Below, piece after piece: positions 1-21,696 of a DNA stretch of 33,554 nucleotides. Origin of the DNA: an uncultured Candidatus Saccharibacteria bacterium (GTDB lineage Bacteria > Patescibacteriota > Dojkabacteria > SC72); NCBI GenBank assembly GCA_964408765.1, contig CAYPAR010000001.1, positions 1-33,554 on the forward strand, written 5' to 3'. Below the pieces are notes generated by a model, which had not been told where the DNA came from, searched no databases, and saw only the letters and a program-made list of their open reading frames with translations. Numbering within the stretch: the first letter of the stretch is position 1; every line of letters starts with the position of its first letter. A program made the translations under genes and the position numbers.

Positions 1-159
1 ATATATTTTCTGAGGTGTTGTATATACGGTTGTACTCTGATCTGTGAGGGATGTGTCAAACTTTTGAGTTTCTGTTGAATACGAAGAAAATGCAATTACT
101 GGTAATGGAATCAGCAAAATGAAAAGTGTAAGTAATACTATACCGTTAAAATTTTTCAT
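1..159 (-). CDS. Partial CDS (first 53 codons; continues beyond the left window edge): exported protein of unknown function
   Basis: Not in the ORF track because it is below the length cut-off. The reverse complement of 159..1 reads ATG AAA AAT TTT ... = MKNFNGIVLLTLFILLIPLPVIAFSSYSTETQKFDTSLTDQSTTVYTTPQKIY and stays open to the edge. It has a hydrophobic core followed by VIA|F, which is signal-peptide-like. It lies on the same strand, 42 nt downstream of the preceding gene. Confidence 0.45.
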   Translation of the reverse strand, partial: MKNFNGIVLLTLFILLIPLPVIAFSSYSTETQKFDTSLTDQSTTVYTTPQKIY

Positions 160-201
160 AGAAAGATTGTACCAAGAAATTGTACCTAACACAAAATAAT
201 G

Positions 202-1200
202 CTAATCAGGGGGAGGAGTTAAGAAATTTGTATTTTTTGTAATATACTGTCCATCTATTGCTAGAATGTACAGTTGTGTTTCTGTAATATAGGTTGTTTT
301 TTCCCAATCTTCATACACTGCATTACCATCTACTATATAGATAGGAAAAATATACCCATATGTGAAATCTTGAAAAGTGTAAGAACTTGATAGTTGCTTT
401 GCATCAAAAGTATTTAACTTAACGGAAACCCTTAAATGTGAACCTTTGCTAGCATACTTTTTATCCCAAGTAAGATTTTTAATTATAAACTTTTTAGTAC
501 TAACTATCTGTCTACTATCAATAGGAGAATAAAGAGAATAGAAATTAACACTAGATGGATTGTATAGAAATACTGAAAACTCCGTAATATTGCCTTCCGA
601 AGATACGTTAATAATAAAAGAGTATGATTCTAAATATATAGAGCCAAATGAGAAATCTTCTAAGTTATATTTCCCTCGATATGACAAGCCACCATCAGAA
701 AGTTTTTTAGTAATGATTTTATCCTTTGTTGCTTTATACCCAACAAGCTTCTCTACAAAGGAAATAACATCCTCCAAATTATTTATAGGATGAGAATTTA
801 GTTGATCGAGGACTTTATATATCAATACTCCTGTATCTTTGTTGTATGTTATCATTGAATTAGATGATTTCCAAAATATTGCAAGATCGGAACTAGATAC
901 CTCTTCTGCTTGTTCATCTAGTTTCTTTACAATATTTAATATATCTTCTTTGTATGGGAGAATCGTAAATACTTTAACTTTCTGATTCTCAGATAAGAGA
1001 TATGAATTTCTTGGTAAAGACCAGTTAAAACTATTCAAATTGTCCTGAAATGGAGTTGGTAAAGGTTTGTTCTCGGCTAATTCTACCTTTTGATTCTTAT
1101 TAAAATTAACAACAAGAATCCAAATTAGTAGTCCAATAACTAACCCAATACCTAATCCAATCAAAATATATTTTTTATATGTTTTTAAAAATTTTTTCAT
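202..1200 (-). CDS. N-terminally membrane-anchored (bitopic) protein, unknown function, Cys-free ectodomain of about 300 aa
   Basis: 332-aa ORF with an ATG start. Residues about 11-33 (YILIGLGIGLVIGLLIWILVVNF) form a single TM helix after a basic N-terminus. The rest is a mixed alpha/beta-looking soluble region. Only 11 nt separate it from the upstream gene, so it is an operon member. Confidence 0.75.
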   Translation of the reverse strand: MKKFLKTYKKYILIGLGIGLVIGLLIWILVVNFNKNQKVELAENKPLPTPFQDNLNSFNWSLPRNSYLLSENQKVKVFTILPYKEDILNIVKKLDEQAEEVSSSDLAIFWKSSNSMITYNKDTGVLIYKVLDQLNSHPINNLEDVISFVEKLVGYKATKDKIITKKLSDGGLSYRGKYNLEDFSFGSIYLESYSFIINVSSEGNITEFSVFLYNPSSVNFYSLYSPIDSRQIVSTKKFIIKNLTWDKKYASKGSHLRVSVKLNTFDAKQLSSSYTFQDFTYGYIFPIYIVDGNAVYEDWEKTTYITETQLYILAIDGQYITKNTNFLTPPPD

Positions 1201-1211
1201 TTTTAATTACC

Positions 1212-3776
1212 TCACATTCCATTATTTCTAATAGCAGAACTTACTATATCCCAACATAAAGATCCTGATTTACCAAGTGCCACATCTTCTAAATCTTGGT
1301 CTGTACAGCCTTGAGAAAGAAAATAATCCCTAGTTTCAGTTGCTTTGACTGCAGGCCCACCATTAACAGAGAAAGTATAACCACCCGCATTTCCAGAGAG
1401 ATAATCTGCTCCCCATTCTCCTATATGGAAGTTATAGTTACCATTTTGAATTATATGAATGACTTCATGTCTAAACAATCGAGACAAATATTCAGAAGAT
1501 GCTCCTATAACCTTATCTGCCTTGCAATATACTGGGACACCACTTATACACCACCAACCACCTTCTTTATACCTAGGATCAGAAGGATCTATCAACTCTA
1601 GATATGTACTTATTCCCATAGAAGCAGCTACCTGGTCAAAAATCTCTTGAACCGTTCCATCAAAAATTAAAATTCCTCCTATGAGATCTCCTTCTCCAAA
1701 AGAAGAACCCCCATACGGTACTTTGAAATCTGTTTCTCCTAAAACAACTTCACCAGGAGCTACATGTGCATACTGATTCTTCATAACAACACTAAGAACA
1801 GAGGGTACCATAACAATAGTAGCAATAATCCCAACAATCGTAAGAACAAAGACTGTAAGAGATGTCTTTATAACTGGTTTTGCAATCTTTACCCCTATAT
1901 TTATAGCTATACTAGCTGCAACATCTACCAAAAAACCAACTACAGCTCCAGCTCCTGCTGTAGTTACACCTAAGGCAGCTATAACAGCCGTCTTAATTCC
2001 TTCAAGTAAAACTTTAAACCCACCAACACGCATCCATTTCCCGATAAGCTTCTTGGCAGGACCATCTTTTATCATTAGTAACAACCGTTTTCCTATCTGT
2101 TGCCTTAGTTTCTGCATAGAACCTCCTAATCGATCAGTAATCAACTTAGTAAACCTGCTCTTAGCCCTACCAAGCGCACCAAATCTAAATGCCATCTTCT
2201 GTAATTTCTCGTTTTTTTTCACAAACTTGAGTAATTTATCAAATTTCCCTTGGTCTAGAACATTTGTGAAAGAATGTAGATATGCTTCACCATTCTCACC
2301 AAATAATTGATCTAGATTTACCCTATCAAGCCAGCCTTCTTTCTCCATCAATTTTAAGAATTTTTCCTGTTGCTTAAATGCTCTATATGCAAAACCCTCT
2401 CCTGTTGCTAATGTCTTAATCCAAACACTTGGTGTATTGTAATACGCTTCGGTCATCATTCTGTAATATTCATTCATGAACTTACTACCTTTACCTGTAA
2501 CAACTCTAGGTATTTTGAATTTAGGTATTTCATCCCTATCTGTCTGAATAAATCTACCTATACCCAACACCTCTTTTTCCTGAACTGGCAAGAACTTTCC
2601 TTCAAATATAGTATTCTTTCTTTTGTCAAAGAAATCACCTGACAATATTGCAGGAAGTAACTGACCACCCATTGTATATTCCCAAGCAGAAGATGTAGAT
2701 GATAAAATACCATCCCATTTTCCAAGTTTTTGAGCTACTTTCTGAGCATTAAACATCCTTAATTCTTTGTTTGTGTCAGATATCTTTGATCTAAGATTTT
2801 TAATAAGATTTTTGTCAGGATTACTAGATTTTAACAGTGTAGATAAGTCTTCTTTGTATTGTTTTAATTCATCTTTTTTCTTTTCTAAATACCTATCCCT
2901 GAGATTCCTCTGCGCAAAAAGATCAACACCTTTCTGTGCACTCTTGTATTTATCTGCAAGCTCAGTATCACCAGCAGCTCTTGCTCTAGCCTCTTTTGTA
3001 GCCATGTTATGACTTTCAAATACTGGATAAAGTGTTTGGTAGTTGTTATCAGAGACATTATCTAATACTGAAGAAATCTTACTGTCGTCTGATCCTTGCC
3101 TGACCTCATTGTCATATGCCCTAAAAGCCTCCTGCAATTTCTTGTATACTTCAGCTCCCCTTTCATTCCCCAGAGACCTTTTAAGAGAACTCTCAGAAAT
3201 ATTTCTGTAGTTTCCAAATTCTCCCTTTACAACTTTTTCTAAATAATCTCTATTTTTTGCCCATGCTCCTAACTTTTCTTCTAGTCTTTTAGAACTTTTA
3301 TCAAGGAAAACATCTTCCCCACCCATGTTAAACAATGCATTTTGAGTTTCTAAATCTAAGCCATATTTTTTTGCCCAAGTAGCAGCAACAACTCCAGATA
3401 ATCGTTCTCCAGCCCAAGCCATTTTTCCAAGTTTCCTATTTATCTCTAACCTCTCAAATTGTTTATCAACAAAAGATAGATCATTATTTAGGACTCCCTT
3501 GATATCTAGGAGTCTGAACTTTATTTGTTCTTCTGGACTAAGATTAACAATTGCTACCTCAGTATTAACTACATCATTGAAAGCATCAACAGCTGTTTTG
3601 TTTACAAATTGTCCAGGATTTTCAAGGACTGCGGCTAATGCATCAATATACTCACTGGTACCATCAAAACCTGTAATTTTTACAGGTTTCCTTTTATCAG
3701 GAGGTTTTTGAGATTCTGTGAATATAAAGTCAAAAACCGACCCGAGAGCATCTTCATATTGCTTCTGTTTTGGCAT
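1212..3776 (-). CDS. Large membrane protein: a soluble, coiled-coil-rich N-terminal region of about 595 aa, a hydrophobic Gly/Ala-rich TM block, and a C-terminal HExxH (HEVIHIIQ) metallopeptidase-like domain
   Basis: 854-aa ORF with an ATG start and TGA stop. There is no signal peptide. The hydrophobic block spans aa 596-666 (AVIAALGVTTAGAGAVVGFLVDVAASIAINIGV ... TSLTVFVLTIVGIIATIVMVPSVLSVVM; nt 1779-1991). The motif HEVIH lies at aa 770-774 (nt 1455-1469, verified as CATGAAGTCATTCAT on the minus strand), followed by IIQ and GEWGAD. All 4 Cys of the protein lie in the last 190 aa. Confidence 0.8.
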   Translation of the reverse strand: MPKQKQYEDALGSVFDFIFTESQKPPDKRKPVKITGFDGTSEYIDALAAVLENPGQFVNKTAVDAFNDVVNTEVAIVNLSPEEQIKFRLLDIKGVLNNDLSFVDKQFERLEINRKLGKMAWAGERLSGVVAATWAKKYGLDLETQNALFNMGGEDVFLDKSSKRLEEKLGAWAKNRDYLEKVVKGEFGNYRNISESSLKRSLGNERGAEVYKKLQEAFRAYDNEVRQGSDDSKISSVLDNVSDNNYQTLYPVFESHNMATKEARARAAGDTELADKYKSAQKGVDLFAQRNLRDRYLEKKKDELKQYKEDLSTLLKSSNPDKNLIKNLRSKISDTNKELRMFNAQKVAQKLGKWDGILSSTSSAWEYTMGGQLLPAILSGDFFDKRKNTIFEGKFLPVQEKEVLGIGRFIQTDRDEIPKFKIPRVVTGKGSKFMNEYYRMMTEAYYNTPSVWIKTLATGEGFAYRAFKQQEKFLKLMEKEGWLDRVNLDQLFGENGEAYLHSFTNVLDQGKFDKLLKFVKKNEKLQKMAFRFGALGRAKSRFTKLITDRLGGSMQKLRQQIGKRLLLMIKDGPAKKLIGKWMRVGGFKVLLEGIKTAVIAALGVTTAGAGAVVGFLVDVAASIAINIGVKIAKPVIKTSLTVFVLTIVGIIATIVMVPSVLSVVMKNQYAHVAPGEVVLGETDFKVPYGGSSFGEGDLIGGILIFDGTVQEIFDQVAASMGISTYLELIDPSDPRYKEGGWWCISGVPVYCKADKVIGASSEYLSRLFRHEVIHIIQNGNYNFHIGEWGADYLSGNAGGYTFSVNGGPAVKATETRDYFLSQGCTDQDLEDVALGKSGSLCWDIVSSAIRNNGM

Positions 3777-3801
3777 TTGACTTAAATATTACAATTAATT
3801 A

Positions 3802-5139
3802 CTACTTCATCATTCCTCCAAGCAAAGGAATTTTGGCCAAATTCTCTTTAATTATTTTTCCTGTTTCTGTTTTAGGTACGGTTGCTGGAATTATGGCTTT
3901 TACTATCTCGGGTGCTGTTGCAGCTACATAAATAGCAACAATCTTACCAACATTAATTACCAACCATGGTACTAGTGTAGAAGTACTAGTACTAGTACCA
4001 ACAAGTGTTTCTGGGAATACCAATCTAATTCCTCTACCCTCAAATGCATATGGAAGATTCACTATTGCAAAAGCTACTGGGAAAATTAGAACATTTCTAG
4101 CTACAGACTTAAAAGTATTAAGCATTGAAGCTTCATTACCAGGAAGAGCACCAAAGAGAATTGTAAAAGGTGCTACTATTAAATTAACTAAGATACCAAA
4201 ATATGCTTTTAATAATACAATCCAAAGCTTGATTGCTCCGATAAGCACGATAGCTACAATCACGAGTGCAAATATACCCAAAATAACACCAACAGGGCCC
4301 AATTTAACAAAACCAGCTATCATCAGACCTAATCCTAAACCCCCACTAATACCAGTTGGAGGAGACTTTAGGATAAAATTACCTAACAGTGTCAACGGAT
4401 TATGAACCTCTATCGCAGAAATAGGATTTTCTGGATAGAGTAAGTTGGCAATGATATTTCTAATCACTCCACCGATATCTATAATTATCCCTATAATCGC
4501 AAAGCTAAATGTGACAAGAAGAAGTGATAAAACTAATTTCGGAATAGAGTTCCCTAATGTTACCATAACTTGCCCCCCTATCTTGTTTCTAAACATAATC
4601 ATAAAGCCAATAACTATCATAATCACCACATAGAATACATATGCGATATTCCTTGTATGAGACCATAGATCTACAATACGAGTCTCTTCTAAATCATCAA
4701 AACCACTAGCATATACGGAGTTGGCCTGTTTATATCCAGGAACCCACTCCTCTGCAAGGTGGGCAACAACATCTATCTTCGGTTGATTATCAAATGTAGC
4801 TACTAATCCTTGATCAACTCTTTCAACTAAACCCATCTTCAATTCATCTGGAAGTTCTTCTGAGTTCTCAAAACATGTTGGACACATACCTTGTAGCAAA
4901 CTCATAGAATGCCCTAAGATTGCTTTGGCTGATCCTTTCTCAACATTCTGAGATTTAGTCTCATTTTGATTAATGGTATCTGATACCGTTGCAGCATCTT
5001 CATAAACTTTAGTATTATCTATAAGTTTTACTTCTACCTCTTCTCCAAAATCCTCCTGTGCTATTACATTAAAAGGCAAAAACAGGAAAAAGAGGGAAGT
5101 AGCAACAGCTGTAATTGATAAGAATCTAAGTCTTTTCAT
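3802..5139 (-). CDS. Polytopic integral membrane protein (signal peptide plus about 6-7 TM helices) with an exported N-terminal domain carrying a CPTC motif; its topology resembles VirB6/TrbL-type channel proteins (unverified)
   Basis: 445-aa ORF with an ATG start. The signal peptide is MKRLRFLSITAVATSLFFLFLPFNVIA|QE. An acidic exported region of about 135 aa follows, then repeated long hydrophobic segments (IAYVFYVVIMIVIGFMIMF, LVLSLLLVTFSFAIIGIIIDIGG, GLGLMIAGF..GVILGIFALVIVAIVLIGAI, and others). The only two Cys are C86 and C89 (CPTC, nt 4873-4884). Confidence 0.8.
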   Translation of the reverse strand: MKRLRFLSITAVATSLFFLFLPFNVIAQEDFGEEVEVKLIDNTKVYEDAATVSDTINQNETKSQNVEKGSAKAILGHSMSLLQGMCPTCFENSEELPDELKMGLVERVDQGLVATFDNQPKIDVVAHLAEEWVPGYKQANSVYASGFDDLEETRIVDLWSHTRNIAYVFYVVIMIVIGFMIMFRNKIGGQVMVTLGNSIPKLVLSLLLVTFSFAIIGIIIDIGGVIRNIIANLLYPENPISAIEVHNPLTLLGNFILKSPPTGISGGLGLGLMIAGFVKLGPVGVILGIFALVIVAIVLIGAIKLWIVLLKAYFGILVNLIVAPFTILFGALPGNEASMLNTFKSVARNVLIFPVAFAIVNLPYAFEGRGIRLVFPETLVGTSTSTSTLVPWLVINVGKIVAIYVAATAPEIVKAIIPATVPKTETGKIIKENLAKIPLLGGMMK

Positions 5140-5160
5140 TTTTTAATATTAATAATTTAT

Positions 5161-6642
5161 TTAATCGATTTCGTACTTCTTAGCAGATAATTTCATAGAT
5201 TGAACTACAGAATTCCAGTAAAAACCGAAATTTGCAGGAAAATCCCCTTGATTTGGTGCCTTATCTTTCTCTTGTAGATTGAAGTTTGATAGTATAGGGG
5301 ATGCATCCCACAAACACAATACTGGTACATTTCTACCATCTATTCTTAAAGCACACTCTGTTGCTACAAAAAACATAATAGATGTTTTGGGATTACCTGA
5401 CATTTTTAGACCACCAGATTCCGAAGGAGAGAGGGTTTCCCTATATGCTTGTGTCAAAAATGCATTTGCACAAAGTTCCTTTTCACAGTTATCTGGTTCT
5501 CCAAATATTGGAGTCATCTTAATTCCTAAAGATTTAGGATCTACACATTCTCCTGATTTTTCTGTTTTTATAATAGTTTCTCCAGTTTCAGGATTTACAC
5601 TTTGAACTTCCTCCCCAACTGTACACCTCTTCCATTGAGAAAATCCGAATGTTGCCATAAATCGCCCACTAATAATCGCTAACACATTTATACAAGATGT
5701 TACAACACCATCCTCATTCTCTATCTTCTTGTAATCCTTACCCTCTACAAGACATTCAGAGTTATCAGATATTACTTTTTCGTCCCCTCCTGGAGCTTGA
5801 GCGCCAAGATATCCACCATATTTTTCATCAGACGCAATATAGTTTGACTTGCCAACATTATAATCAGATATTGCTAGCTTTGGCTCACAAGTCTTTCCAT
5901 AAACTGTACACTCTGGTTGATGAGATCTATCTTCAACTTGGTATTTACCTTCAACATCGTTTAAGTCTTCTACATCTCCTATATTCATCTTAATTTTTCC
6001 TTCAACAACAAAAGGTTTTTTCTCAGTACCAGAAATAGATTCATTAAACTCTATAGCTTCTTGAGGCGATAAGGTTCTTGAAACTATTTCCGGATCAATC
6101 TGTTGTCCATTAGATCTAGTTTCTGGAGAATTCTTTCGTATCTGTTTATTACTATCTATAAATGTATATTGTCCTTTCCATAAAGCTAATGGATAAGTTA
6201 CTTTTGTTATCTCAATCTTAGAGTCTTTACTTACAATAACACCCTGTCCGCTAGATCCAGATTCCTGACCTTCTGAGAAATCAATTGCACCACTACCCTG
6301 TGTAGAGCAAACATACCTTTTTGATGAGAGGAAGTTTGCAGGATCTATTCCCTGACAGTCGGAACCAGAAATACCTAAGACTGATGAATCAGAGGAATCC
6401 AGTAATGTTACAGTTTGTGAATTATCTAATAGAATATAGTTTATAGACGCATTCTCATCTATCACCTCTTCTATAATCTCACCTGTCTGACAATTTGTAC
6501 ATTCTGCTGGTTGAGATACAGGAAGTTGTGGTTCTGTTTTACTAAAATCTATTTTTGAGAAAATATTTACCATCCATAACGAAAAAAGGGAGAGTCCAAT
6601 GAGAAAGAACATAGCTTTTGTATTTATAGGTTTTTTTCTCAT
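5161..6642 (-). CDS. Secreted or N-anchored cysteine-rich protein (14 Cys), unknown function
   Basis: 493-aa ORF. The N-terminal hydrophobic segment is AMFFLIGLSLFSLWMVNIF. I counted 14 Cys by hand, all after the hydrophobic segment. Its ATG overlaps the upstream stop codon in an ATGA arrangement (nt 6639-6642), which implies translational coupling. Confidence 0.8.
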   Translation of the reverse strand: MRKKPINTKAMFFLIGLSLFSLWMVNIFSKIDFSKTEPQLPVSQPAECTNCQTGEIIEEVIDENASINYILLDNSQTVTLLDSSDSSVLGISGSDCQGIDPANFLSSKRYVCSTQGSGAIDFSEGQESGSSGQGVIVSKDSKIEITKVTYPLALWKGQYTFIDSNKQIRKNSPETRSNGQQIDPEIVSRTLSPQEAIEFNESISGTEKKPFVVEGKIKMNIGDVEDLNDVEGKYQVEDRSHQPECTVYGKTCEPKLAISDYNVGKSNYIASDEKYGGYLGAQAPGGDEKVISDNSECLVEGKDYKKIENEDGVVTSCINVLAIISGRFMATFGFSQWKRCTVGEEVQSVNPETGETIIKTEKSGECVDPKSLGIKMTPIFGEPDNCEKELCANAFLTQAYRETLSPSESGGLKMSGNPKTSIMFFVATECALRIDGRNVPVLCLWDASPILSNFNLQEKDKAPNQGDFPANFGFYWNSVVQSMKLSAKKYEID

Positions 6643-8462
6643 AAGTTTCTAGACATTTTACCATTTCCCTTCGTTCTTTTCCTAGAGGAGATATATAGTA
6701 ATACTCCTAATATTACTAGAGAGATAGAGAATAAGATTATACCAACAAGATTATCCATTATACCTGTATTTGGTGTTGTGGTTGTCTCTGTCATAGTAAT
6801 AGCATTTGGGTCATTTGTAATTCCATAATTGCTCAGTTGTGAGATAGATTTGGTAGATTCTGTTGATGGTAATGATTCAAGAGCTATTTTAATATCACGT
6901 TTATCAATACTATCCATACTCTCTTCATGGGTAGATGTTCCAAATGTCGTATATGGTTTAAGAACTAACTTATCCTCTGAGGTATATTCAAAGTATGAAT
7001 CTTTACTGTTAGATCTCATATCTCCGATAGATAATACCCAACCACCTGAATCATCCGCCAAAGAAGAAACCTCATAACTTTCCCCTAAGGTTCCTATTTC
7101 ATCTCCATCCTTTATACTACCGATAACAATAGTTTCTCCATGTTCAGGCATGTTAGTAAATTTCCCAGTTACAGAAACAAAAGGAGGAGCACTGTCGATG
7201 GTATTTAAAGTTGTTACAGGATATTTTCTCTCATTATTATTGTAAGTATCATCTCCAGAGATTATTTCAAAGTAATATTTTGTTTCAGGTTGTAAACGAT
7301 CTACCTTTACAGAATGAAGGTAGAAAGATCCCTTTGGAGATATGCCATCTCTCTGATCATATGCTGTATTGGACAAATTCTCCGCTGAAATTCCATACTT
7401 AACACTTCCTATTTCTTTTTTTTCTGATACCCAAAGTACTGTAAAGCCACTATCTGTTAGATTAGTTACTTTTACACTTTCTGGACCGACATTAGTAGAT
7501 ACTCTACTTATTTCAAGTAATTCCTTCCACTGTAATTGATGTACTATCCTGTATTCTCTATTTGTAAACTCTTCTTCAGGAGTCTTTTCTTCTTCAACAG
7601 GTATTACTGGTACTACCGGTTGAACAGGTACTACTGGGCTTACTGGCGGTGTGGGTTCTTCAGGAGGATTAGTAGCCAAAACCATTAGTTTTGCAGCATC
7701 TGGGATTTTGGGATATATATCTAAGTCTGTACTTAATGTTAACTGATTTGCTTCTTTTAGTGTACCACTACTATCAAAAAGACTAGAATATGTACCTATG
7801 AGTTCGGCTCCACCAATATTACCACCTGTTGCTAATATTGTTATCCCAGTATCATCTTTTACAGTTGCTCTTGATTTATCTGCAATCTTTAATAAAGCTG
7901 AAAGATCTGTAATCCAGGTTTTACTATTACCTAAAGTAGCAGAAACTGGATATGTACTCTTATCACTTAAGAATATATATATTAAAACATCATCTGTTGT
8001 TGCCATTGCTATCTCTCCACTAGCTGGATTTACAGAAGGGAGATCTGCTGATATTGGAGCGGTAGTAAATGTTAAATCTTTGCCTTCACTAGATGAGTAT
8101 TTGGTATTATTTGATTTAAGCTTGAAGTTATATTGTGTATTTGGTTCTAAGTTTTCAACCTCTACATAGTGTGTATATCTTCTATCACTGCCTCTTGCAT
8201 CTCTAATTTCGGATTTCTCTTGATTATTCTCAAGTAGAATTAAAGTACCATATGTTTTGGTATCTGTAGTCCAAGATATTGTGGCCATTGTTGTTGTAAT
8301 ATTGCTTATAACAACATTCTTAGGATCTGTATCTCCAGATGCTTTAGATACTATTTGAACAACCTTATACGCTGCAAATAGAAGAAGAGGCAATCCTATA
8401 ATCAGAATTGCCATTATAATACTCTGTCTTCTTTTTCTTTGAGGTAATTGAGCTATCTTCAT
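6639..8462 (-). CDS. Surface protein with an N-terminal TM/signal anchor, two FN3-like (purple-acid-phosphatase-N-type) modules, a Pro-rich linker, and a C-terminal LPXTG-like sorting signal (TPNTG + TM + basic tail)
   Basis: 607-aa ORF with no Cys at all. The FN3-like signatures are VVISNITTTMATISWTTDT...YTHYVEVENLEPNTQYNFK and VKVTNLTDSGFTVLWVSE...YLHSVKVDRLQPETKYYFE. The linker is NPPEEPTPPVSPVVPVQPVVPVIPVEEE (nt 7572-7670). The C-terminus is TPNTG-IMDNLVGIILFSISLVILGVLLYI-SSRKRTKGNGKMSRNL (nt 6642-6776). Confidence 0.85.
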   Translation of the reverse strand: MKIAQLPQRKRRQSIIMAILIIGLPLLLFAAYKVVQIVSKASGDTDPKNVVISNITTTMATISWTTDTKTYGTLILLENNQEKSEIRDARGSDRRYTHYVEVENLEPNTQYNFKLKSNNTKYSSSEGKDLTFTTAPISADLPSVNPASGEIAMATTDDVLIYIFLSDKSTYPVSATLGNSKTWITDLSALLKIADKSRATVKDDTGITILATGGNIGGAELIGTYSSLFDSSGTLKEANQLTLSTDLDIYPKIPDAAKLMVLATNPPEEPTPPVSPVVPVQPVVPVIPVEEEKTPEEEFTNREYRIVHQLQWKELLEISRVSTNVGPESVKVTNLTDSGFTVLWVSEKKEIGSVKYGISAENLSNTAYDQRDGISPKGSFYLHSVKVDRLQPETKYYFEIISGDDTYNNNERKYPVTTLNTIDSAPPFVSVTGKFTNMPEHGETIVIGSIKDGDEIGTLGESYEVSSLADDSGGWVLSIGDMRSNSKDSYFEYTSEDKLVLKPYTTFGTSTHEESMDSIDKRDIKIALESLPSTESTKSISQLSNYGITNDPNAITMTETTTTPNTGIMDNLVGIILFSISLVILGVLLYISSRKRTKGNGKMSRNL

Positions 8463-8516
8463 TAAGAAATATGATACCTAGAAGAAGGAATTATTACAAT
8501 ACAACAAGATATATTC

Positions 8517-8807
8517 TTACTCTTCCTCTTTACTCTGTTCTCCTGTTAGACCTGATATGAAACCACTTACAGCAGATATTCCAGATCCTATACCTCTGAT
8601 TGGTTTTACTATGCTTTCATTTACTTCTTCTACTGTACCTTTCACTGTAGACATTACAGAGTGAGCATCAGAGGTAATATCTTCTACATTCTTTAATGTT
8701 CTTCTAGAATCTTTTATAAACATACCTAATTCAAATAGTATGAAAGATAATAGAGATGCTAGTATACCAACGACTATCATCCAATATATTGGAGGTATTG
8801 TTTCCAT
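8517..8807 (-). CDS. Small N-terminally anchored membrane protein, DUF948-like (TM helix plus a helical, Gly/Ser-rich tail)
   Basis: 96-aa ORF with an ATG start. It has one TM helix (IYWMIVVGILASLLSFILFELGMFI). This is followed by KDSRRTLKNVEDITSDAHSVMSTVKGTVEEVNESI, which resembles the DUF948 pattern as I remember it. It sits 20 nt downstream of the giant gene. Confidence 0.6.
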   Translation of the reverse strand: METIPPIYWMIVVGILASLLSFILFELGMFIKDSRRTLKNVEDITSDAHSVMSTVKGTVEEVNESIVKPIRGIGSGISAVSGFISGLTGEQSKEEE

Positions 8808-8827: not shown

Positions 8828-11800
8828 TTACTTATCACACTGTCCGTTGTAGTTTCCACCTGGATTCCACCAAAGAGTTTTACAAGATGGATCTTTTGGA
8901 TTAAATTCACTTATTCTTACAAAATATCCATTTAATGGACTTATGGGATAATCTTGTCCATATGATTGTCCATTTATTAACTGATAACCTTGATACATAC
9001 CTCTTGATGTAGGCCACCATGTTACATTGTCTGATTTAAGACCTTCTATAGTATTAATACTTTCTATTAATGTTCTAGCTGTATATGCTGTACTATATCC
9101 ATGTATACCTACTAGGTTCCAACCACGAGAGAAGGCTACGGGAACTGATTTGTCCAATTTAAGCCCAGGAATGGAGATTGTAGTATCTTGTTCAGCTATT
9201 ACTACATAACCTCTCCCAAAAACCAGGTCAAAGACAGTACCTTTAGTTTCCTTTGTATTAAAATCATATGTTGTGCCACCACTCCATTTTCCAGCTTCAA
9301 AATATGATATTGCTGAAACTTTATTCTCTCCCATATTAACTAATTCTAAGAATTCAACAGAGTTTAATTTTGGTTCATTACCTCCCTTCGATGGCATAAA
9401 GCCAAAAGAGATGATATTAATACCACGTTTTAAAGAATACTTTGTTGTTATTGCTGTTTGAGAAGAAAATAGTACTACAGATTTTGGAAGTATCATATCT
9501 TCACTTTCTTTTGGATTATTAGGATCTTGTGGAGCTTGATAACCAGGGACTCCATCGTTATCTTTATAAAAGAAGTAAGATATATCATCCTCACCTATTA
9601 ATGATATTTTACGACCTCCAGCAATTGTAACTTCATACATACCCTCTCCTGGATAGTATAGTACTTGATTTGTTGTTTCCTCCTCTTGAGTATTGTCCTC
9701 TTCATAGGTACTATCATCTGCAAGAGATTTGAACAAAGCTTTATTGAAAACACTTGTTGAACTCTCACTGCTGGGGACCTCAATATTGTAATACTCCATT
9801 TCCTTCAGGAGAGATTCTTCAGCTAAGCATTTTTCCCAATCTTCTATGAATTCTGATGGACAATTGTCTAGACTATATTTATTTGTAGCATCATTATGAC
9901 AACAATACTTACCATTAACAGATGTTTTACCCTTTTTGATAGGAGTACTATTTTCACATACATCTCGGGGACTAGAAGTAGAGAGAGAAACTACAGGAGT
10001 TACCTCCTCATCCTTATCTCCTAAACAATACACTACTTTCAAAGACAAATTACACTTACTAGTAGAAGATGCTTCGCAACTTGTTGAGAAGTTGTATCCT
10101 GCAACAGGGGACGTCTCACTTGCATATGGACAACACTTTAAATTGTTAATATCTTTATGAGATAACTCTCCCGAGACTTCTACAGGAATAATATATTCTT
10201 TTTTAGGACAATTAAGGTAACCTGAGGATGTAGTTCCAACATCTCCTTCTTCATCATATACCCTATAATTTTGTACATACAATGGCAACTTTTCTAGAAA
10301 AGAAGAACAGTGCTTTTTAAATTCATTAGCAGTATCGCTACGCAAACAAACTATTTGATTCTCATTTTGGTTTTTCTTAGTTGAAACAGCTTCTTGGTAT
10401 TCCCCACATCTAGTATCATGATGATATGTATCGCGAAGAAAATTCTCACACTCGAAGGGAGAGGAGAATCGCATAGAACCTAAATATCTTTCAACTGCAC
10501 TCTTTGCCGCAGTACTAACAACAGAAGGAACCGTCTCACACTTTTTTCCAGGTGTAATATAATATTCCTTCGTACATCTATCATCCTCAGGAACACAATC
10601 ACAAAAATCAGAATAATATCCTTTACTCTTATCACACAGGGTCCCTTTTATTGTCTCTCTACTACAAATATTATTTTTCTTATGATAACAATAGACAGTA
10701 TCTTCAGAAGGACATGAAAGAACACCAATTCTACGAGTAGAAGATCCTGGTTCGTAGTATAAAAGCGTACTTTTACTTTCTTCATCGTTTTTACAACCGT
10801 TTTCAAAGTATTCTGCCTCTTTACTAAAAACACAAACTCTCTCTAATCGATTTCCTATAAACACGCTTATTACTTCAAATCCTTTTTGACATTCTTCACT
10901 CATTACCTCTATCTGTGAATTAGCAGCTGGAAGCTTGATATCTCTATACTCTTCACATTGTTCTTTAGTTAAGCATGTTAAGTGACCAGAAGTACAAACA
11001 CCAGATTGGTAATTTGGCAATTCTATACATTCTCTTTTATCTGTGTCATATGTAAATCTTTTCTTAGGAACCATAATCCATTGATCTCCGTCTGCCACTT
11101 TTTCTAAATCTCGATCTCCTGGGCGACTGTATACATTCATACACTCTGGAGGTCTACAATGTTGAACTTTTGGATCTGGTGAAGTATATCCACATACATA
11201 ACCAGTTCCACCTATTCTGTACCTCCAATGACATGTTGCATGTTCATCACACCCAGATGCTGCAAACGGTTCTTTCAATGTTGAAGGAATACATCCTGTA
11301 GTTGAGTTAGAGGTGTTGTTTGGTTGGGTATTTGTTGTTCCAGTATTTGTCGAGTTACCTGTTTGATTTTGACTATTACTATTAGTGTTTGCTGATTTTC
11401 CAACATTTCTTCCTAGAGATTTATTATTGGATTGTTTTGAAGCAGCATTAGTTTTACTAGTTAATTTACTATGTAACCATGACAGAGCTGTATTCTCATC
11501 TGCATCTTCCTCTACCTCCCAATCTTCCTCTCTATTACCCAGTAAAGATAAGGGGAATATATCCTCTTTATACACTAGACTCCTATCAATATTTAATGGT
11601 ATTGCATTATCAACTTGCGGAATAAATTCCAGAGTCAAGCCCTCAATAGATACTGGTTGATTTTGGGCATCCCGTATATTTGCCAAATCTATAGACCACC
11701 CTCCATCGGAGTTGCTTACAGAAGAAAGTAAAGGATAATTATCTACATTTACATCAAAAGATCGTAAGAAAATTATAGAGTCAAAATTCTCTTTCTTTGC

Positions 11801-12445
11801 CATCATTCCAAATTTATCAATATACATATTGTAAGATGTTCCGTATGCAGGGTTAGGTGCTTCCACTTTGGTAATCACTGGCAATGTCTTAGATTTAAAT
11901 TCTGATATAGCTGGCATCTCCCTTTCTGCAAATGTTCCCCCATAACTCTTCCCATAACTAACAACCCCATCACCTACTCTAAAGAAATACTCCTTCTCTG
12001 CATCTAAGTTCTGTACTGTAATATGATGGGTATAGTACTTACCATACTTCCATACCTTAACATCATTACAATTAAAACCACTAGCATCTACTGTAAAATT
12101 AGCATCCTTAGTCTTAACTGCCTTCTTATTAAACTTACTAACACACTCACTCATAGCATCAGAACTATCCCTATCATCTACTGCCTTCTTCTTACCTATC
12201 CATGCTAAAGGTCCAGGAAGAAATGTATCTTTCTCTCCATAGTAAACAATACCAGTCATAGGAGTATCTGTTATCCAAGATACAGTAAATGCACTATCTG
12301 TTACATTAGTAACTCTCACCTTATACGGCTTATACCTAACCCCCATATATACTACATACCCAATATATCCTAAGAGAAATAATCCTGTTAGTAGAAGAAC
12401 TATTTTAGATATAGTTCTTAAGACCTTTACCTGTTGTAAATTCAT
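8828..12445 (-). CDS. Giant exported surface protein: TM/signal anchor, FN3-like module, N/S/T/Q low-complexity linker, Cys-rich core of about 490 aa (36 Cys), acidic linker, and a beta-rich C-terminal domain
   Basis: 1205-aa ORF with an ATG start. The TM helix is at aa 14-34. The FN3-like module is VRVTNVTDSAFTVSWITDTPMTGIVYYGE...YYTHHITVQNLDAEKEYFFRV. The linker at aa 331-384 (nt 11294-11455) reads KTNAASKQSNNKSLGRNVGKSANTNSNSQNQTGNSTNTGTTNTQPNNTSNSTTG. The Cys-rich core is aa 385-873 (nt 9827-11293). Isolated Cys pairs occur at 101/126 and 1188/1203, giving 40 Cys in total by hand count. Confidence 0.9.
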   Translation of the reverse strand: MNLQQVKVLRTISKIVLLLTGLFLLGYIGYVVYMGVRYKPYKVRVTNVTDSAFTVSWITDTPMTGIVYYGEKDTFLPGPLAWIGKKKAVDDRDSSDAMSECVSKFNKKAVKTKDANFTVDASGFNCNDVKVWKYGKYYTHHITVQNLDAEKEYFFRVGDGVVSYGKSYGGTFAEREMPAISEFKSKTLPVITKVEAPNPAYGTSYNMYIDKFGMMAKKENFDSIIFLRSFDVNVDNYPLLSSVSNSDGGWSIDLANIRDAQNQPVSIEGLTLEFIPQVDNAIPLNIDRSLVYKEDIFPLSLLGNREEDWEVEEDADENTALSWLHSKLTSKTNAASKQSNNKSLGRNVGKSANTNSNSQNQTGNSTNTGTTNTQPNNTSNSTTGCIPSTLKEPFAASGCDEHATCHWRYRIGGTGYVCGYTSPDPKVQHCRPPECMNVYSRPGDRDLEKVADGDQWIMVPKKRFTYDTDKRECIELPNYQSGVCTSGHLTCLTKEQCEEYRDIKLPAANSQIEVMSEECQKGFEVISVFIGNRLERVCVFSKEAEYFENGCKNDEESKSTLLYYEPGSSTRRIGVLSCPSEDTVYCYHKKNNICSRETIKGTLCDKSKGYYSDFCDCVPEDDRCTKEYYITPGKKCETVPSVVSTAAKSAVERYLGSMRFSSPFECENFLRDTYHHDTRCGEYQEAVSTKKNQNENQIVCLRSDTANEFKKHCSSFLEKLPLYVQNYRVYDEEGDVGTTSSGYLNCPKKEYIIPVEVSGELSHKDINNLKCCPYASETSPVAGYNFSTSCEASSTSKCNLSLKVVYCLGDKDEEVTPVVSLSTSSPRDVCENSTPIKKGKTSVNGKYCCHNDATNKYSLDNCPSEFIEDWEKCLAEESLLKEMEYYNIEVPSSESSTSVFNKALFKSLADDSTYEEDNTQEEETTNQVLYYPGEGMYEVTIAGGRKISLIGEDDISYFFYKDNDGVPGYQAPQDPNNPKESEDMILPKSVVLFSSQTAITTKYSLKRGINIISFGFMPSKGGNEPKLNSVEFLELVNMGENKVSAISYFEAGKWSGGTTYDFNTKETKGTVFDLVFGRGYVVIAEQDTTISIPGLKLDKSVPVAFSRGWNLVGIHGYSTAYTARTLIESINTIEGLKSDNVTWWPTSRGMYQGYQLINGQSYGQDYPISPLNGYFVRISEFNPKDPSCKTLWWNPGGNYNGQCDK

Positions 12446-12760: not shown

Positions 12761-13222
12761 ATGAAGATAAATATGAAAAACAAAGAATATACAAAAATTA
12801 ATCTAAGAGATTTTCGACATAATTTAACACAGTTAAAGGATTCATTGGTGAGAATATATGAGAAAGGTATTCCCATTGGCTACTACATCCCAGAACAATA
12901 TGAGGTCAAGATAGAGAGCAAACAAGAAATTAGAAGAGAACAGATGAGAAAAGCCTTGCAACTCCCTCTAGGGCATCTTGCCACACAGAAACACAAGAAC
13001 ATTGATGCAAATGAAGAATTTAAGAAAATTATGATTGAGAAATATAAGAAAAGGAATAAGAGGTTGTCAGGAAAAAGACATCGTTCTAACCAGAAAAAAG
13101 AACAGAATGTTAAGGAGTGGGAAGAAATGCTCTCTATGCCAATTGAGAAATCTAAACTACCTGATGATTTTGATGTGGACAAAGAATACAGAAGATTACT
13201 TGAGCAAAAGTATAGAAAATGA
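12761..13222 (+). CDS. Type II antitoxin: Phd/YefM-like N-terminus plus a basic region and two copies of a D-x-D-x-x-KE[YF][RK][RK][LI][LM]xExKY motif
   Basis: 153-aa ORF. The N-terminus KINLRDFRHNLTQLKDSLVRIYEKGIPIGYYIPEQYE fits the Phd/YefM pattern. The stop overlaps the PIN gene start (ATGA at 13219-13222). The true start could be M1 (12761) or M5 (12773). Confidence 0.7.
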   Translation: MKINMKNKEYTKINLRDFRHNLTQLKDSLVRIYEKGIPIGYYIPEQYEVKIESKQEIRREQMRKALQLPLGHLATQKHKNIDANEEFKKIMIEKYKKRNKRLSGKRHRSNQKKEQNVKEWEEMLSMPIEKSKLPDDFDVDKEYRRLLEQKYRK

Positions 13223-13632
13223 AAAAGATATTCTTAGACACAAACATATTAGCGGATTTAGTAGGAGAAAGGACACAATATGATAGTGGTATAGAACAGT
13301 TAATTGATGCTGAGTACTTTCCAATTATTTGTATATCAGCTTTAAGTGTTCCAGTTATACTATATGTTTTCAAGATAAAGATGGATTCTGAAGAATTTTT
13401 AAGATTCTCAGAAATTATATCTACAATGGATATACTACCGCTAACAAGTAAAATTATTATAGATGCCACAAAACATATATCACCTGATTACGAGGATTCA
13501 TTGCAATATCTAACAGCCATAGAAAACAATTGTGATTACATCCTAACAAGAGACAAAAAAGATTTTGAAAAGATAAAGAAGGTAATACCTTCTAAGATTA
13601 AAATAGTAACAAACATATCCCAAATCAAGTAA
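13219..13632 (+). CDS. vapC: PIN-domain ribonuclease toxin (VapC family)
   Basis: 137 aa. It has the IFLDTNIL N-terminal acidic motif, DYEDSLQYLTA, and ILTRDKKDF, which together form the classical PIN acidic set. It has a 4-nt overlap with the upstream antitoxin gene. Confidence 0.85.
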   Translation: MKKIFLDTNILADLVGERTQYDSGIEQLIDAEYFPIICISALSVPVILYVFKIKMDSEEFLRFSEIISTMDILPLTSKIIIDATKHISPDYEDSLQYLTAIENNCDYILTRDKKDFEKIKKVIPSKIKIVTNISQIK

Positions 13633-15791: not shown

Positions 15792-16763
15792 ATGTCAAGA
15801 ATTATCGATTCAATATTTAACTCATGGGGTAACAGTCTAATATCTAAATTACATAACTTAAATACTTTCTTCATTGAAATTAATTCTACTTGTAATCTAA
15901 ATTGTCAACATTGTTACATTCCTCAAGGAAGCAAAAACAAGGAATTACCACTAGAGAAAATAGAGGAAGTGTTGAAACAGATAAAAGAAGAATGGGGAAC
16001 AAGTGTTGGTATTGCTCTAACAGGAGGCGAACCTCTGTTACATAAATCTTTTGGGGAAATCGTAGAGTATCTTAAAAAGGAAGGTTTTGGATGGTCATTA
16101 GCAACTAACGGAATCTTCCTTAATGAAGATAATATTAAGAAATTGAAAAAGCTTAAATGTGGAGCAATCACTATTAGTATAGATGGAGACTATGACACAC
16201 ATACTAAACAGAGAGGCGAAAAGAGTCAATTAGACCATCTGATTAACAACATTAAGTTGTTGGTTTCAGAGGGCTTTTACAGTATATACATAACCTCTAC
16301 TATTCATAATGATAATGTTAAATCTTTAAAATTTTTAGGTGATTTAGTACTGAAGTTTGATAAAAAAGTTAAATGGAGAATTAACCCCCTACTTCATTGT
16401 GAAAATGCAGTACAGAATAATTTAAAAATATCTCCAAAGACATATGAGAAAATATGTAAGTTTCGGGAAGATTTTTTAGAGAAGAACAAAATTGACATTA
16501 TGATTGGAGAAAAGAACCCACTATCATTAAAAAACAAGGAGTATCTGTATAGTGATTTAGATTACTGCTTAGCTGGTATTACAACTTTTGGTGTTTTGGC
16601 TAATGGTGATATTGTTAACTGTATGATTTGTAGAGAAAAAACATTAGGCAATATTTACAAAGATTATTCTTTAGTTAAAATATGGGAAGAACAAAATCTT
16701 TCAAGAAAAGGCCTTTGTGAGAAACATTTGGAATCCAAGAATTCACTTTGGAAAGTAGCATAA
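15792..16763 (+). CDS. Radical SAM enzyme with a C-terminal SPASM/twitch-like auxiliary-cluster domain; substrate unknown
   Basis: 323 aa. It has the CNLNCQHCY (CxxxCxxC) motif, LTGGEPLL, and ITISIDG. The C-terminal segment CLAGITTFGVLANGDIVNCMICREKTLGNIYKDYSLVKIWEE matches the SPASM/twitch pattern C.aG....i..dG.v.pC....lGNi...sl..iW. Confidence 0.85.
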   Translation: MSRIIDSIFNSWGNSLISKLHNLNTFFIEINSTCNLNCQHCYIPQGSKNKELPLEKIEEVLKQIKEEWGTSVGIALTGGEPLLHKSFGEIVEYLKKEGFGWSLATNGIFLNEDNIKKLKKLKCGAITISIDGDYDTHTKQRGEKSQLDHLINNIKLLVSEGFYSIYITSTIHNDNVKSLKFLGDLVLKFDKKVKWRINPLLHCENAVQNNLKISPKTYEKICKFREDFLEKNKIDIMIGEKNPLSLKNKEYLYSDLDYCLAGITTFGVLANGDIVNCMICREKTLGNIYKDYSLVKIWEEQNLSRKGLCEKHLESKNSLWKVA

Positions 16764-20271: not shown

Positions 20272-21696
20272 TTACATGACAGGTTTATCCTCATCTGCTT
20301 CAGAAGTACTCTCTATTTTTTTCTTTCCATAGAATTCAATTGCTAACCTCAATTCCTCTTTATCCTGAGCATATTCTTCTAGAGGAATCTTTTGCACCCA
20401 TGCATCATATGCTTGTAATACTGCTGTTGCACCAGCTTTTGTACCCATTGGATGAGAATGTACTCCACCACCCATTGTTGTTATAAAGTCTTGTGTTCCA
20501 ATAACATCTAGGAACTTTCCGATAAGGGTGGGATTTAGACCTCCTGAGATAATAGGAGCAGTCTTTTTAACCATTCTCCAATATCCAAAATCAGAATAGT
20601 CTTCTCCTTCTTGTTCTTTCTTAATTGCATCTACCAAATCTGTATCTTTCTCTGGTATTTCAGACCATATTTGATTAAAGAAATCACCTTTTGAGAAGAG
20701 TCTCAAAGCATGATTTGCAGCCATGATATCTTCTTTTGGAGATCCTGCCATTTTACCAACACCAGCTGTTCCTGTATGAATACCTGATGCTCCTGCTAAT
20801 CTTGCAAATTTTGTTAAGACAGGAACTGTAAAACCAAATGGAGCTTCTTCTCTTGTAAATGCACCATGTCCAGCTCTATGAAAATGTAAGAATACATCTG
20901 GATATCGCCTCCTAACTGTTTGTACCGCCATCCAGCCAGCAGTTATTCCATCTACCAAGAATGCATAGCTATTCGGCTTCATTATTGATTGAATTAAACC
21001 TGCTCTTTCTATCATTGTATCAAAGTTAGCTGAAGAGATATTAAAGGAATGTACTTTTGTTTTACCTGTTTCTTCCTCTACTCTGTCCATTGCTAATCTA
21101 ACATCTCTGACCATGAACTCAAAAGGTGCAAAATCTTGATCTGCTTGGGGTTCATCGTTTTTTACAAAATCACCACCACCTGACCAGAAGTCATAACAAA
21201 CCTCTGCGTATTCTGAAGATGTTAGCCCTATTTTTGGTTTAATGATAGTTCCAAAGATAGGTCTTTTCTCAATACCTAGATACTTTCTCATATCATCTAT
21301 TGTGTAATTTGGACCATCATATTGCACAAGCATCTGAGGAGGAAAATATACATCTAGTAGTTTGCACACCTTTACACTACTCATACCAAAGACATTTCCG
21401 GCAATAAAGGTCATAATATTTTGGACATTTCCACCTCGGTCAAAAATCCTCCATGGATATGCTATCCAAGCAAGGTTTTGTTCTTCATCTACTCTATACA
21501 CTACTGCATTCATACTCTCTGAGAACGAAGTAGATATCTTGATTTTAACATTTGAACCAGTAGAAGACTCTGCTGCTACTTCACTAGCTATGTCTTCAAC
21601 AGTAATACCTTCATCTCCTTTTACCCTAAAAACTGCAAGAAGGTATTGTCCATTGAAAACATCCTGATTACCTATTTGGATGTATTGTTTTTGCAT
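20272..21696 (-). CDS. rbcL: Ribulose-1,5-bisphosphate carboxylase/oxygenase large subunit, form II/III-like (bona fide RuBisCO, not an RLP)
   Basis: 474 aa. The conserved active-site blocks are present: AAESSTGS, AGNVFG, IIKPKIG, GGDFVKNDEPQ (carbamylated Lys = K179), LHFHRAGHG, GIHTGTAGVGKMAG, PIISGGL and MGGGVHSHPMG. The segment between GKMAG and PIISGG is 62 aa long. Confidence 0.93.
   Translation of the reverse strand: MQKQYIQIGNQDVFNGQYLLAVFRVKGDEGITVEDIASEVAAESSTGSNVKIKISTSFSESMNAVVYRVDEEQNLAWIAYPWRIFDRGGNVQNIMTFIAGNVFGMSSVKVCKLLDVYFPPQMLVQYDGPNYTIDDMRKYLGIEKRPIFGTIIKPKIGLTSSEYAEVCYDFWSGGGDFVKNDEPQADQDFAPFEFMVRDVRLAMDRVEEETGKTKVHSFNISSANFDTMIERAGLIQSIMKPNSYAFLVDGITAGWMAVQTVRRRYPDVFLHFHRAGHGAFTREEAPFGFTVPVLTKFARLAGASGIHTGTAGVGKMAGSPKEDIMAANHALRLFSKGDFFNQIWSEIPEKDTDLVDAIKKEQEGEDYSDFGYWRMVKKTAPIISGGLNPTLIGKFLDVIGTQDFITTMGGGVHSHPMGTKAGATAVLQAYDAWVQKIPLEEYAQDKEELRLAIEFYGKKKIESTSEADEDKPVM

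Follow-up and report, generated by a model that had tools for sequence, protein, structure and literature searches.

The 33,554-nucleotide stretch of contig CAYPAR010000001.1 analysed here, termed the window, carries the gene of a 1205-residue surface protein whose middle holds a core of about 490 residues with 36 Cys. Comparison of this core with a second natural allele and with relatives in Dojkabacteria suggests that it is a disulfide-scaffolded, exposed and replaceable recognition head of a Dojkabacteria-specific surface protein. We infer both the disulfides and the function from sequence comparisons and place the probability of this reading at about 0.6. Dojkabacteria (WS6) are tiny, uncultured bacteria that are abundant in wastewater systems and are presumed to live on other cells, probably in a host-dependent manner.

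The initial annotation had counted the 36 Cys by hand between residues 385 and 873. A script count returns exactly this number for nucleotides 9827–11293 and gives 40 Cys for the whole protein, the other four being residues 101, 126, 1188 and 1203. Cys accounts for 7.4% of the core and for 0.84% of the other 21 open reading frames (ORFs) of the window (77 of 9214 residues; binomial P ~2e-22). Two CC pairs are located at 771/772 and 848/849, and a CxC pair at 615/617. The core has no internal periodicity, in agreement with the earlier inspection by eye: its best off-diagonal Smith–Waterman score is 43, compared with 39 ± 5 in shuffled sequences, and a repeat-bearing relative used as a positive control scores 161. 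The N/S/T/Q linker and the acidic S/E/T linker described earlier on either side of the core both exist, and both are predicted to be disordered; the predicted disorder extends over residues 313–385 and 872–927, where the predicted local distance difference test score (pLDDT) of the structural model is below 50.

Among 5.8 billion proteins, the core has a single homologue, P0002 (1218 residues), which represents a second allele. Residues 1–334 and 927–1205 are 97–100% identical between P0002 and the window protein, and the middle is about 40% identical. In the core, 35 of the 36 Cys occupy identical alignment positions and the remaining one is a single residue off; all four outer Cys align as well. 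The chance probability of such an alignment of Cys is about 3e-13, given 40% identity at non-Cys positions. Conservation of the Cys positions in homologues, which the initial annotation had left to be checked, is thus borne out. A full HMMER search over 1.84 billion representatives revealed no further homologue of the core, nor did searches of viral contigs and GTDB species genomes. Iteration of the profile hidden Markov model within the family added no core relative at an E value of 1e-4, and BLAST with composition correction produced only weak matches, which were to the distal half of the core.

The DNA of the two allele loci is 96.1% identical across 3.4 kb upstream, neighbouring genes included, and 98.5% identical across 1 kb downstream. 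Between these near-identical flanks lies a diverged block of 1.8 kb with about 50% nucleotide identity, in which a Gly/Ser linker of allele 2 takes the place of the N/S/T/Q linker. At residues 334/335, a single 30-codon step takes nucleotide identity from ~98% down to ~47%, and identity recovers at residues 926/927. Synonymous divergence (dS) is 1.06 in the core and 0.07 in the flanks, a 15-fold difference. The ratio of non-synonymous to synonymous divergence (dN/dS) is 0.49 in the core and 0.03–0.16 in the flanks, the core value being rough because dS there is near saturation. The G+C content of the cassette equals that of the flanks. The uniformly high synonymous divergence, together with the sharp borders, suggests that an old allele was introduced by recombination and that amino-acid selection alone does not account for the divergence.

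Across six distinct full-length versions of allele 1 and four of allele 2, all taken from different assemblies, 12 positions of the N domain and 1 position of the core are variable; one partial allele-1 sequence contributes a second variable position in the core. Residue 6 segregates as V or I in both alleles, a pattern consistent with recombination that has separated the N domain from the cassette. Of the DNA runs, at least 20, from activated sludge, wastewater and 'soil', contain 96–100% of the sampled words of the locus, whose habitat is aerated activated sludge and biofilm. Contigs assembled from seven DNA runs span the core with 0–1 differences and without branching at the cassette borders. 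Depth differences and loose flank ends in run X5 were considered as signs of alternative cassettes and are due to coexisting Dojkabacteria that share short conserved stretches. Part of the core is also held by 18 RNA runs, four of which yield contigs that match the core and the operon. Those pieces of RNA-run contigs that lie within the core all match it with 0 differences, and one piece extends past the right-hand border; DNA carry-over may account for these RNA-run matches. One abundant contig, with a depth of up to 473, occurs in three RNA runs and touches positions 1183–1200 and 5760–5779 of the window with 36 other letters between; the likeliest explanation is a short coincidental match to a strongly expressed RNA from a different organism.

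When the C-terminal domain was used as a query, at least 106 relatives were found, making 107 listed proteins with the window protein itself. These relatives are 680–1760 residues long and match the C domain with E values of 1e-187 to 1e-50; apart from one genome described below, the named members belong to Candidatus Dojkabacteria (WS6). All relatives have the N and C domains in common, and PF16656 is found in 100 of the 106 (101 of the 107 listed proteins). The family architecture consists of a transmembrane anchor, an FN3-like module, a variable and mostly Cys-rich middle and a duplicated C-terminal β domain. The middles comprise 279–1144 residues with 4–95 Cys (median 6.9% Cys); their Cys content is at least 5% in 87 of the 106 members and below 3.5% in 13, down to 1%. 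Throughout the family, conservation of the outer Cys pairs (101/126 and 1188/1203) is 90% or more. Replacement of the middle is family-wide and frequent: pairs of proteins with at least 85% identical N and C domains have middles that are 6–100% identical, and when the end domains are concatenated and a tree is built from them, a 15-member clade around the window protein contains five core types. A distal subdomain of the core is common to a clade of members at 22–25% identity, and in an alignment of eight sequences only nine Cys and one Gly are invariant.

Some family members, forming a subgroup, have a middle that consists of tandem six-Cys units of about 45 residues, for example ISDFTTVC..C.C......C...C.....C (loci L003, positions 220–3513, and L005, positions 1–3393; proteins P0010–P0022). 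The copy number of this unit differs between near-identical proteins of the subgroup, resulting in 36, 42, 48 or 54 Cys. A motif C-x-C-x-CG[WYF], considered as a family-wide 'entry' to the middle, was dropped, as it occurs in 14 of 106 members against 5 in shuffled sequences. Only one family gene is present in the window and in the syntenic loci examined. A contig of a metagenome-assembled genome labelled Candidatus Saccharibacteria (L002, positions 2–5251) encodes two family members in tandem, whose Cys-rich middles differ. Of the two, the second is split into overlapping ORFs at 2020–4314 and 4268–5251 by a frameshift or an assembly error. The taxonomic label of this genome may be wrong because all other named members belong to Dojkabacteria.

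Known Cys-rich families do not match the core in Pfam, NCBIfam or PDB, so that the initial annotation's concern about a well-known domain with an established function does not apply. At E values up to 1, neither the core nor five other members nor the sequences of the distal subdomain match any Pfam family. EGF, TSP, furin-like, knottin-type, uromodulin D8C and other Cys-rich domains of Pfam were rejected as candidates, as none gave a significant profile match to the core. At the same threshold, NCBIfam has no family for the window protein and four relatives, the Myxococcus Cys-rich repeat model included. The core has no sequence match in PDB, and a profile of the distal subdomain finds nothing there at E values up to 10. 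When the full-length model predicted by AlphaFold2 (AF2) was compared by Foldseek, the FN3 part was the only part matched. The features of the protein and its operon are listed in Table 1.

Table 1. Positions of the surface-protein gene, of the parts of its product and of the operon genes in the window
Feature	Residues	Nucleotides	Strand	Basis or remark
Gene of 1205-residue membrane-anchored surface protein	1–1205	8828..12445	(-)	first gene of surface operon
N-terminal signal anchor	13–36	12338..12409	(-)	hydropathy and conservation in the family consensus
Conserved N module	40–310	11516..12328	(-)	contains Cys pair 101/126
N/S/T/Q low-complexity linker	331–384	11294..11455	(-)	
Variable cassette	335–925	9672..11442	(-)	blastn borders, sliding nucleotide identity, dS
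Cys-rich core	385–873	9827..11293	(-)	36 Cys
Conserved island within cassette	391–420	11186..11275	(-)	includes CDEHATCHWRYRIGGTGYVCGY; 92% nucleotide identity between alleles
Distal Cys subdomain	~695–880	9806..10363	(-)	13 Cys, with both CC pairs
Acidic S/E/T linker	874–926	9668..9826	(-)	
Conserved C-terminal domain	927–1205	8831..9667	(-)	contains Cys pair 1188/1203
Co-directional downstream operon genes		202..8807	(-)	
96-residue transmembrane protein		8517-8807	(-)	
607-residue double-FN3 protein		6639-8462	(-)	C-terminal sorting-signal-like tail
493-residue secreted protein		5161-6642	(-)	14 Cys
445-residue polytopic protein		3802-5139	(-)	
854-residue protein		1212-3776	(-)	
332-residue protein		202-1200	(-)	

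The surface-protein gene is intact in at least six independent assemblies, and its product is identical to P0120. Residues 13–36 form the sole strongly hydrophobic segment: the Kyte–Doolittle score in a 19-residue window reaches its maximum of 2.18 at residue 15 and is 1.6 or less elsewhere. This large protein is predicted to be type-II membrane-anchored and extracytoplasmic. The conserved N module is composed of an FN3/purple-acid-phosphatase-N-like sandwich followed by a second β domain ('DGGW'). Residues 43–160 match Pfam family PF16656 (Pur_ac_phosph_N) with an E value of 1.4e-7. The N module is modelled by AF2 with a pLDDT of 70–89 and matched by Foldseek to tandem FN3 domains, and it is homologous to two modules of the 607-residue operon neighbour. 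The C-terminal domain, modelled alone from 62 sequences, reaches a pLDDT of 86.1 and a predicted template modelling score of 0.79 and is an all-β structure with two helices. It is an internal duplication of residues 1005–1086 and 1105–1180 (hhalign self-match probability 83%, E value 9e-6). Its fold has no significant match in PDB (best E value 0.13) or BFVD (best E value 0.01), and as a separate query this domain matches only fragments of the same family.

The recognition-head reading can be put in the following terms. A signal anchor would be followed by an FN3-like stalk module, a disordered linker, the Cys-rich core, a disordered acidic linker and the duplicated β domain, with the core as an exposed and structurally self-contained head. 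Most probably the 36 Cys are paired within the molecule in about 18 disulfides, which would fix the fold and thereby allow the loops between the Cys to diverge almost freely. The whole middle, about 1.8 kb with its linkers, behaves as a replaceable cassette, and two versions that diverged long ago would have come to lie in near-identical genomes through homologous recombination in the conserved flanks. Members of the family differ by exchange, expansion or contraction of the middle, whereas their ends and the operon remain the same. The role of the protein is most likely recognition of, or attachment to, a partner cell or surface, and its diversification may be driven by partner specificity, by phages that use the protein as a receptor, or by both.

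The Cys could instead form intermolecular disulfides that cross-link the protein with itself and with the 493-residue operon protein into a rigid envelope lattice, for which the cysteine-rich outer membrane complex of chlamydiae is an analogue; the variability of the core would then reflect a weak constraint on its loops. The Cys are indeed the only strictly conserved residues of the core, and the 493-residue protein has 14 Cys, all of which align in its homologue from L005, an activated-sludge contig, at 64% identity; 8 align in the homologue from the distant locus L007, at 23% identity. This operon protein is probably disulfide-bonded as well. However, long disordered linkers around a core are typical of a displayed domain, and allelic replacement that is sharp yet keeps the full Cys framework is more readily expected of a folded module than of a cross-linker. 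Furthermore, 13 of the 106 middles contain less than 3.5% Cys, so that a role in a lattice cannot be essential to the family. We regard such a lattice as unlikely.

Metal binding and thioether formation, which the initial annotation had named beside an extensive disulfide network, find no support, and the disulfide network is the best supported of the three. A core whose Cys bind Zn or Fe-S or are redox-active, serving catalysis, electron transfer or metal scavenging, might be suggested by the high Cys density and by the conserved island CDEHATCHW, which has two His beside Cys. However, the spacings CxxC and CxxxC are absent from the middle of both alleles, as is CxxCH, and the multihaem cytochrome, Zn-ribbon and Fe-S classes were rejected because the CxxCH or paired CxxC that they require is missing there. 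The spacing of the Cys is irregular and non-repetitive, the few His of the core are not conserved in number (10 in one allele and 4 in the other), and no metal-binding family of Pfam or NCBIfam matches at E values up to 1. A metal or redox function thus appears quite improbable.

The few unconserved His and the lack of CxxC and CxxxC, together with Cys as nearly the sole conserved residues, favour disulfides. They are also favoured by the predicted extracytoplasmic location and by the even and invariant number of Cys in both alleles, and the near invariance of the two outlying Cys pairs across the family supports a disulfide network. The habitat is aerated, and an MdbA-like thiol oxidoreductase family, often encoded beside VKOR, is enriched in bacteria of the Candidate Phyla Radiation (CPR) (10.1101/335083), both of which argue in the same direction. 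No thiol oxidoreductase of the DsbA or MdbA–VKOR type was found among the scanned ORFs of the window.

Cross-linking of the Cys through thioethers or other bonds by the radical SAM/SPASM protein encoded 3.3 kb away (323 residues, 10 Cys; 15792-16763, (+)) is very improbable. The best NCBIfam similarities of this protein include peptide maturases, all far below the cut-offs. However, its gene lies on the opposite strand within a housekeeping block (RsmE, RsmB, PNPase) and has no counterpart at that position in the syntenic locus L007. Moreover, the enzyme lacks a signal peptide and its substrate would be an exported protein of 1205 residues, whereas known SPASM maturases work on short cytoplasmic precursor peptides. 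A local mutator such as a diversity-generating retroelement, in place of recombination between old alleles, is equally hard to credit: such elements are common in CPR bacteria and the divergence is restricted to one segment, but that segment covers 1.8 kb, is internal, contains indels and is affected equally at synonymous sites, whereas the variable regions of these elements span about 100–150 bp with adenine-specific changes; each allele is almost invariant across many samples; and the window contains no reverse-transcriptase family match in its 22 ORFs of at least 120 residues and no template-like repeat of the cassette.

Several observations weigh against the recognition-head reading. The AF2 full-length model of the core has low confidence (pLDDT 26–85), and no adhesin, lectin or other ligand-binding domain is recognized in the protein. 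The even Cys totals that the initial annotation took as a sign of pairing hold for the window protein and for both alleles; in the family they are a tendency and not a strict rule, being even in 72 of 107 proteins. No conserved CxxC protein is found in the operon: the 445-residue protein has only two Cys, in a CPTC motif that is CxxxxC in the L005 homologue and missing from the site in the L007 homologue, and this lack of conservation in two homologues argues against a dedicated oxidoreductase. As for recombination, its inference is based on two alleles, the donor lineage of the cassette was not found, none of the seven DNA runs showed both alleles, and the dN/dS of the core is rough, as stated above. 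The 26 core types require only the minimum of 25 changes on the flank tree, with no homoplasy, so that this tree provides no positive evidence of exchange between distant lineages. Finally, we know of no host of Dojkabacteria.

Apart from FN3, the operon proteins have no significant relative in Pfam, NCBIfam or PDB. The order of the genes beside RsmE/RsmB is kept in L005, in L006 and in L007, in which the C domain is 42% identical. Between the surface-protein gene and RsmE, a PIN/VapC-type toxin gene and an upstream partner of 153 residues occupy positions 12761-13632, and the pair is also present in the allele-2 strain (L001). In L007, RsmE directly adjoins the surface-protein gene, and the pair therefore looks like an insertion in the lineage of the window. 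The window has a G+C content of about 35% and encodes rpoB/C-sized genes, ribosomal proteins S7 and S12, DnaJ, NusA, IF-2, PNPase, RsmB and RsmE. A RuBisCO large-subunit homologue of 474 residues is encoded at 20272-21696; such homologues have been reported for some CPR lineages, Dojkabacteria among them.

Large extracellular proteins with about 7% Cys that vary between strains have been described in CPR Peribacteria, and a function in attachment has been proposed for them (Anantharaman et al. 2016, PeerJ, PMC4736985). The genomes of Peribacteria also contain one disulfide-forming protein (PMC4736985). The window protein is likened to these proteins by description: both come from CPR bacteria, are large, have a signal peptide or an extracellular prediction and contain about 7% Cys. 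The view that such Cys content is unusual for a bacterial surface protein must therefore be qualified, since this kind of protein is already known from that publication. However, the Peribacteria proteins belong to a different phylum and form a cluster of 14 paralogous genes, some of which resemble FG-GAP or Myxococcus Cys-rich repeats. The window protein, in contrast, is the product of a single syntenic gene, has conserved FN3-like and duplicated β ends and matches no such repeats. No description of the present family, of its folds or of the two-allele swap was found in the literature searched.

Likenesses to other variable surface proteins lie in the arrangement. Flagellins and M proteins have conserved ends and a hypervariable, exposed middle that is exchanged by recombination, and the window protein is like them in that its two ends are conserved, its variable middle has sharp borders and its alleles are discrete and sit in near-identical backgrounds. 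It has no homology to them, is membrane-anchored, has a disulfide-type Cys scaffold and is neither a filament subunit nor a coiled coil. The variant-specific surface proteins of Giardia also combine a Cys-rich variable ectodomain with a conserved anchoring part and with surface variation. However, these are eukaryotic, metal-binding, CxxC-rich proteins of a large gene family with expression switching, whereas the window protein lacks CxxC and its variation is allelic. Myxococcus TraA is likewise a polymorphic surface protein with a Cys-rich region and is thought to set the specificity of cell–cell recognition. Its variable part is a PA14-like domain and its Cys-rich repeats form a conserved stalk, whereas in the window protein the Cys-rich part is the variable one and the NCBIfam model of the Myxococcus repeat is unmatched. 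Conotoxins and knottins resemble the core in principle only, with an invariant Cys framework, hypervariable loops and highly conserved flanking sequence; they are small secreted peptides of animals and plants, whereas the module described here has about 490 residues, is non-repetitive and is part of a bacterial membrane protein.

The retention of the 36-Cys framework at 40% identity implies a disulfide scaffold that would be new and robust and that has no relative in Pfam or PDB, and the confidently modelled C domain is likewise without a fold match. To our knowledge, nothing is known about partner recognition in Dojkabacteria. This locus provides a concrete and testable candidate for it, as a single syntenic gene that is present in metatranscriptomes and whose constant ends define a phylum-wide family. 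It is a tentative suggestion that the Cys-rich head is the partner-specificity determinant of Dojkabacteria, a so far undescribed, non-repetitive disulfide fold of about 490 residues mounted on a lineage-specific seven-gene envelope apparatus, with discrete alleles of ancient divergence, moved between strains by recombination, deciding which host, surface or phage is engaged. If this were true, the two alleles, found in near-identical backgrounds, would amount to a specificity swap performed by nature, and they may be used as probes for the bound partner in sludge communities.

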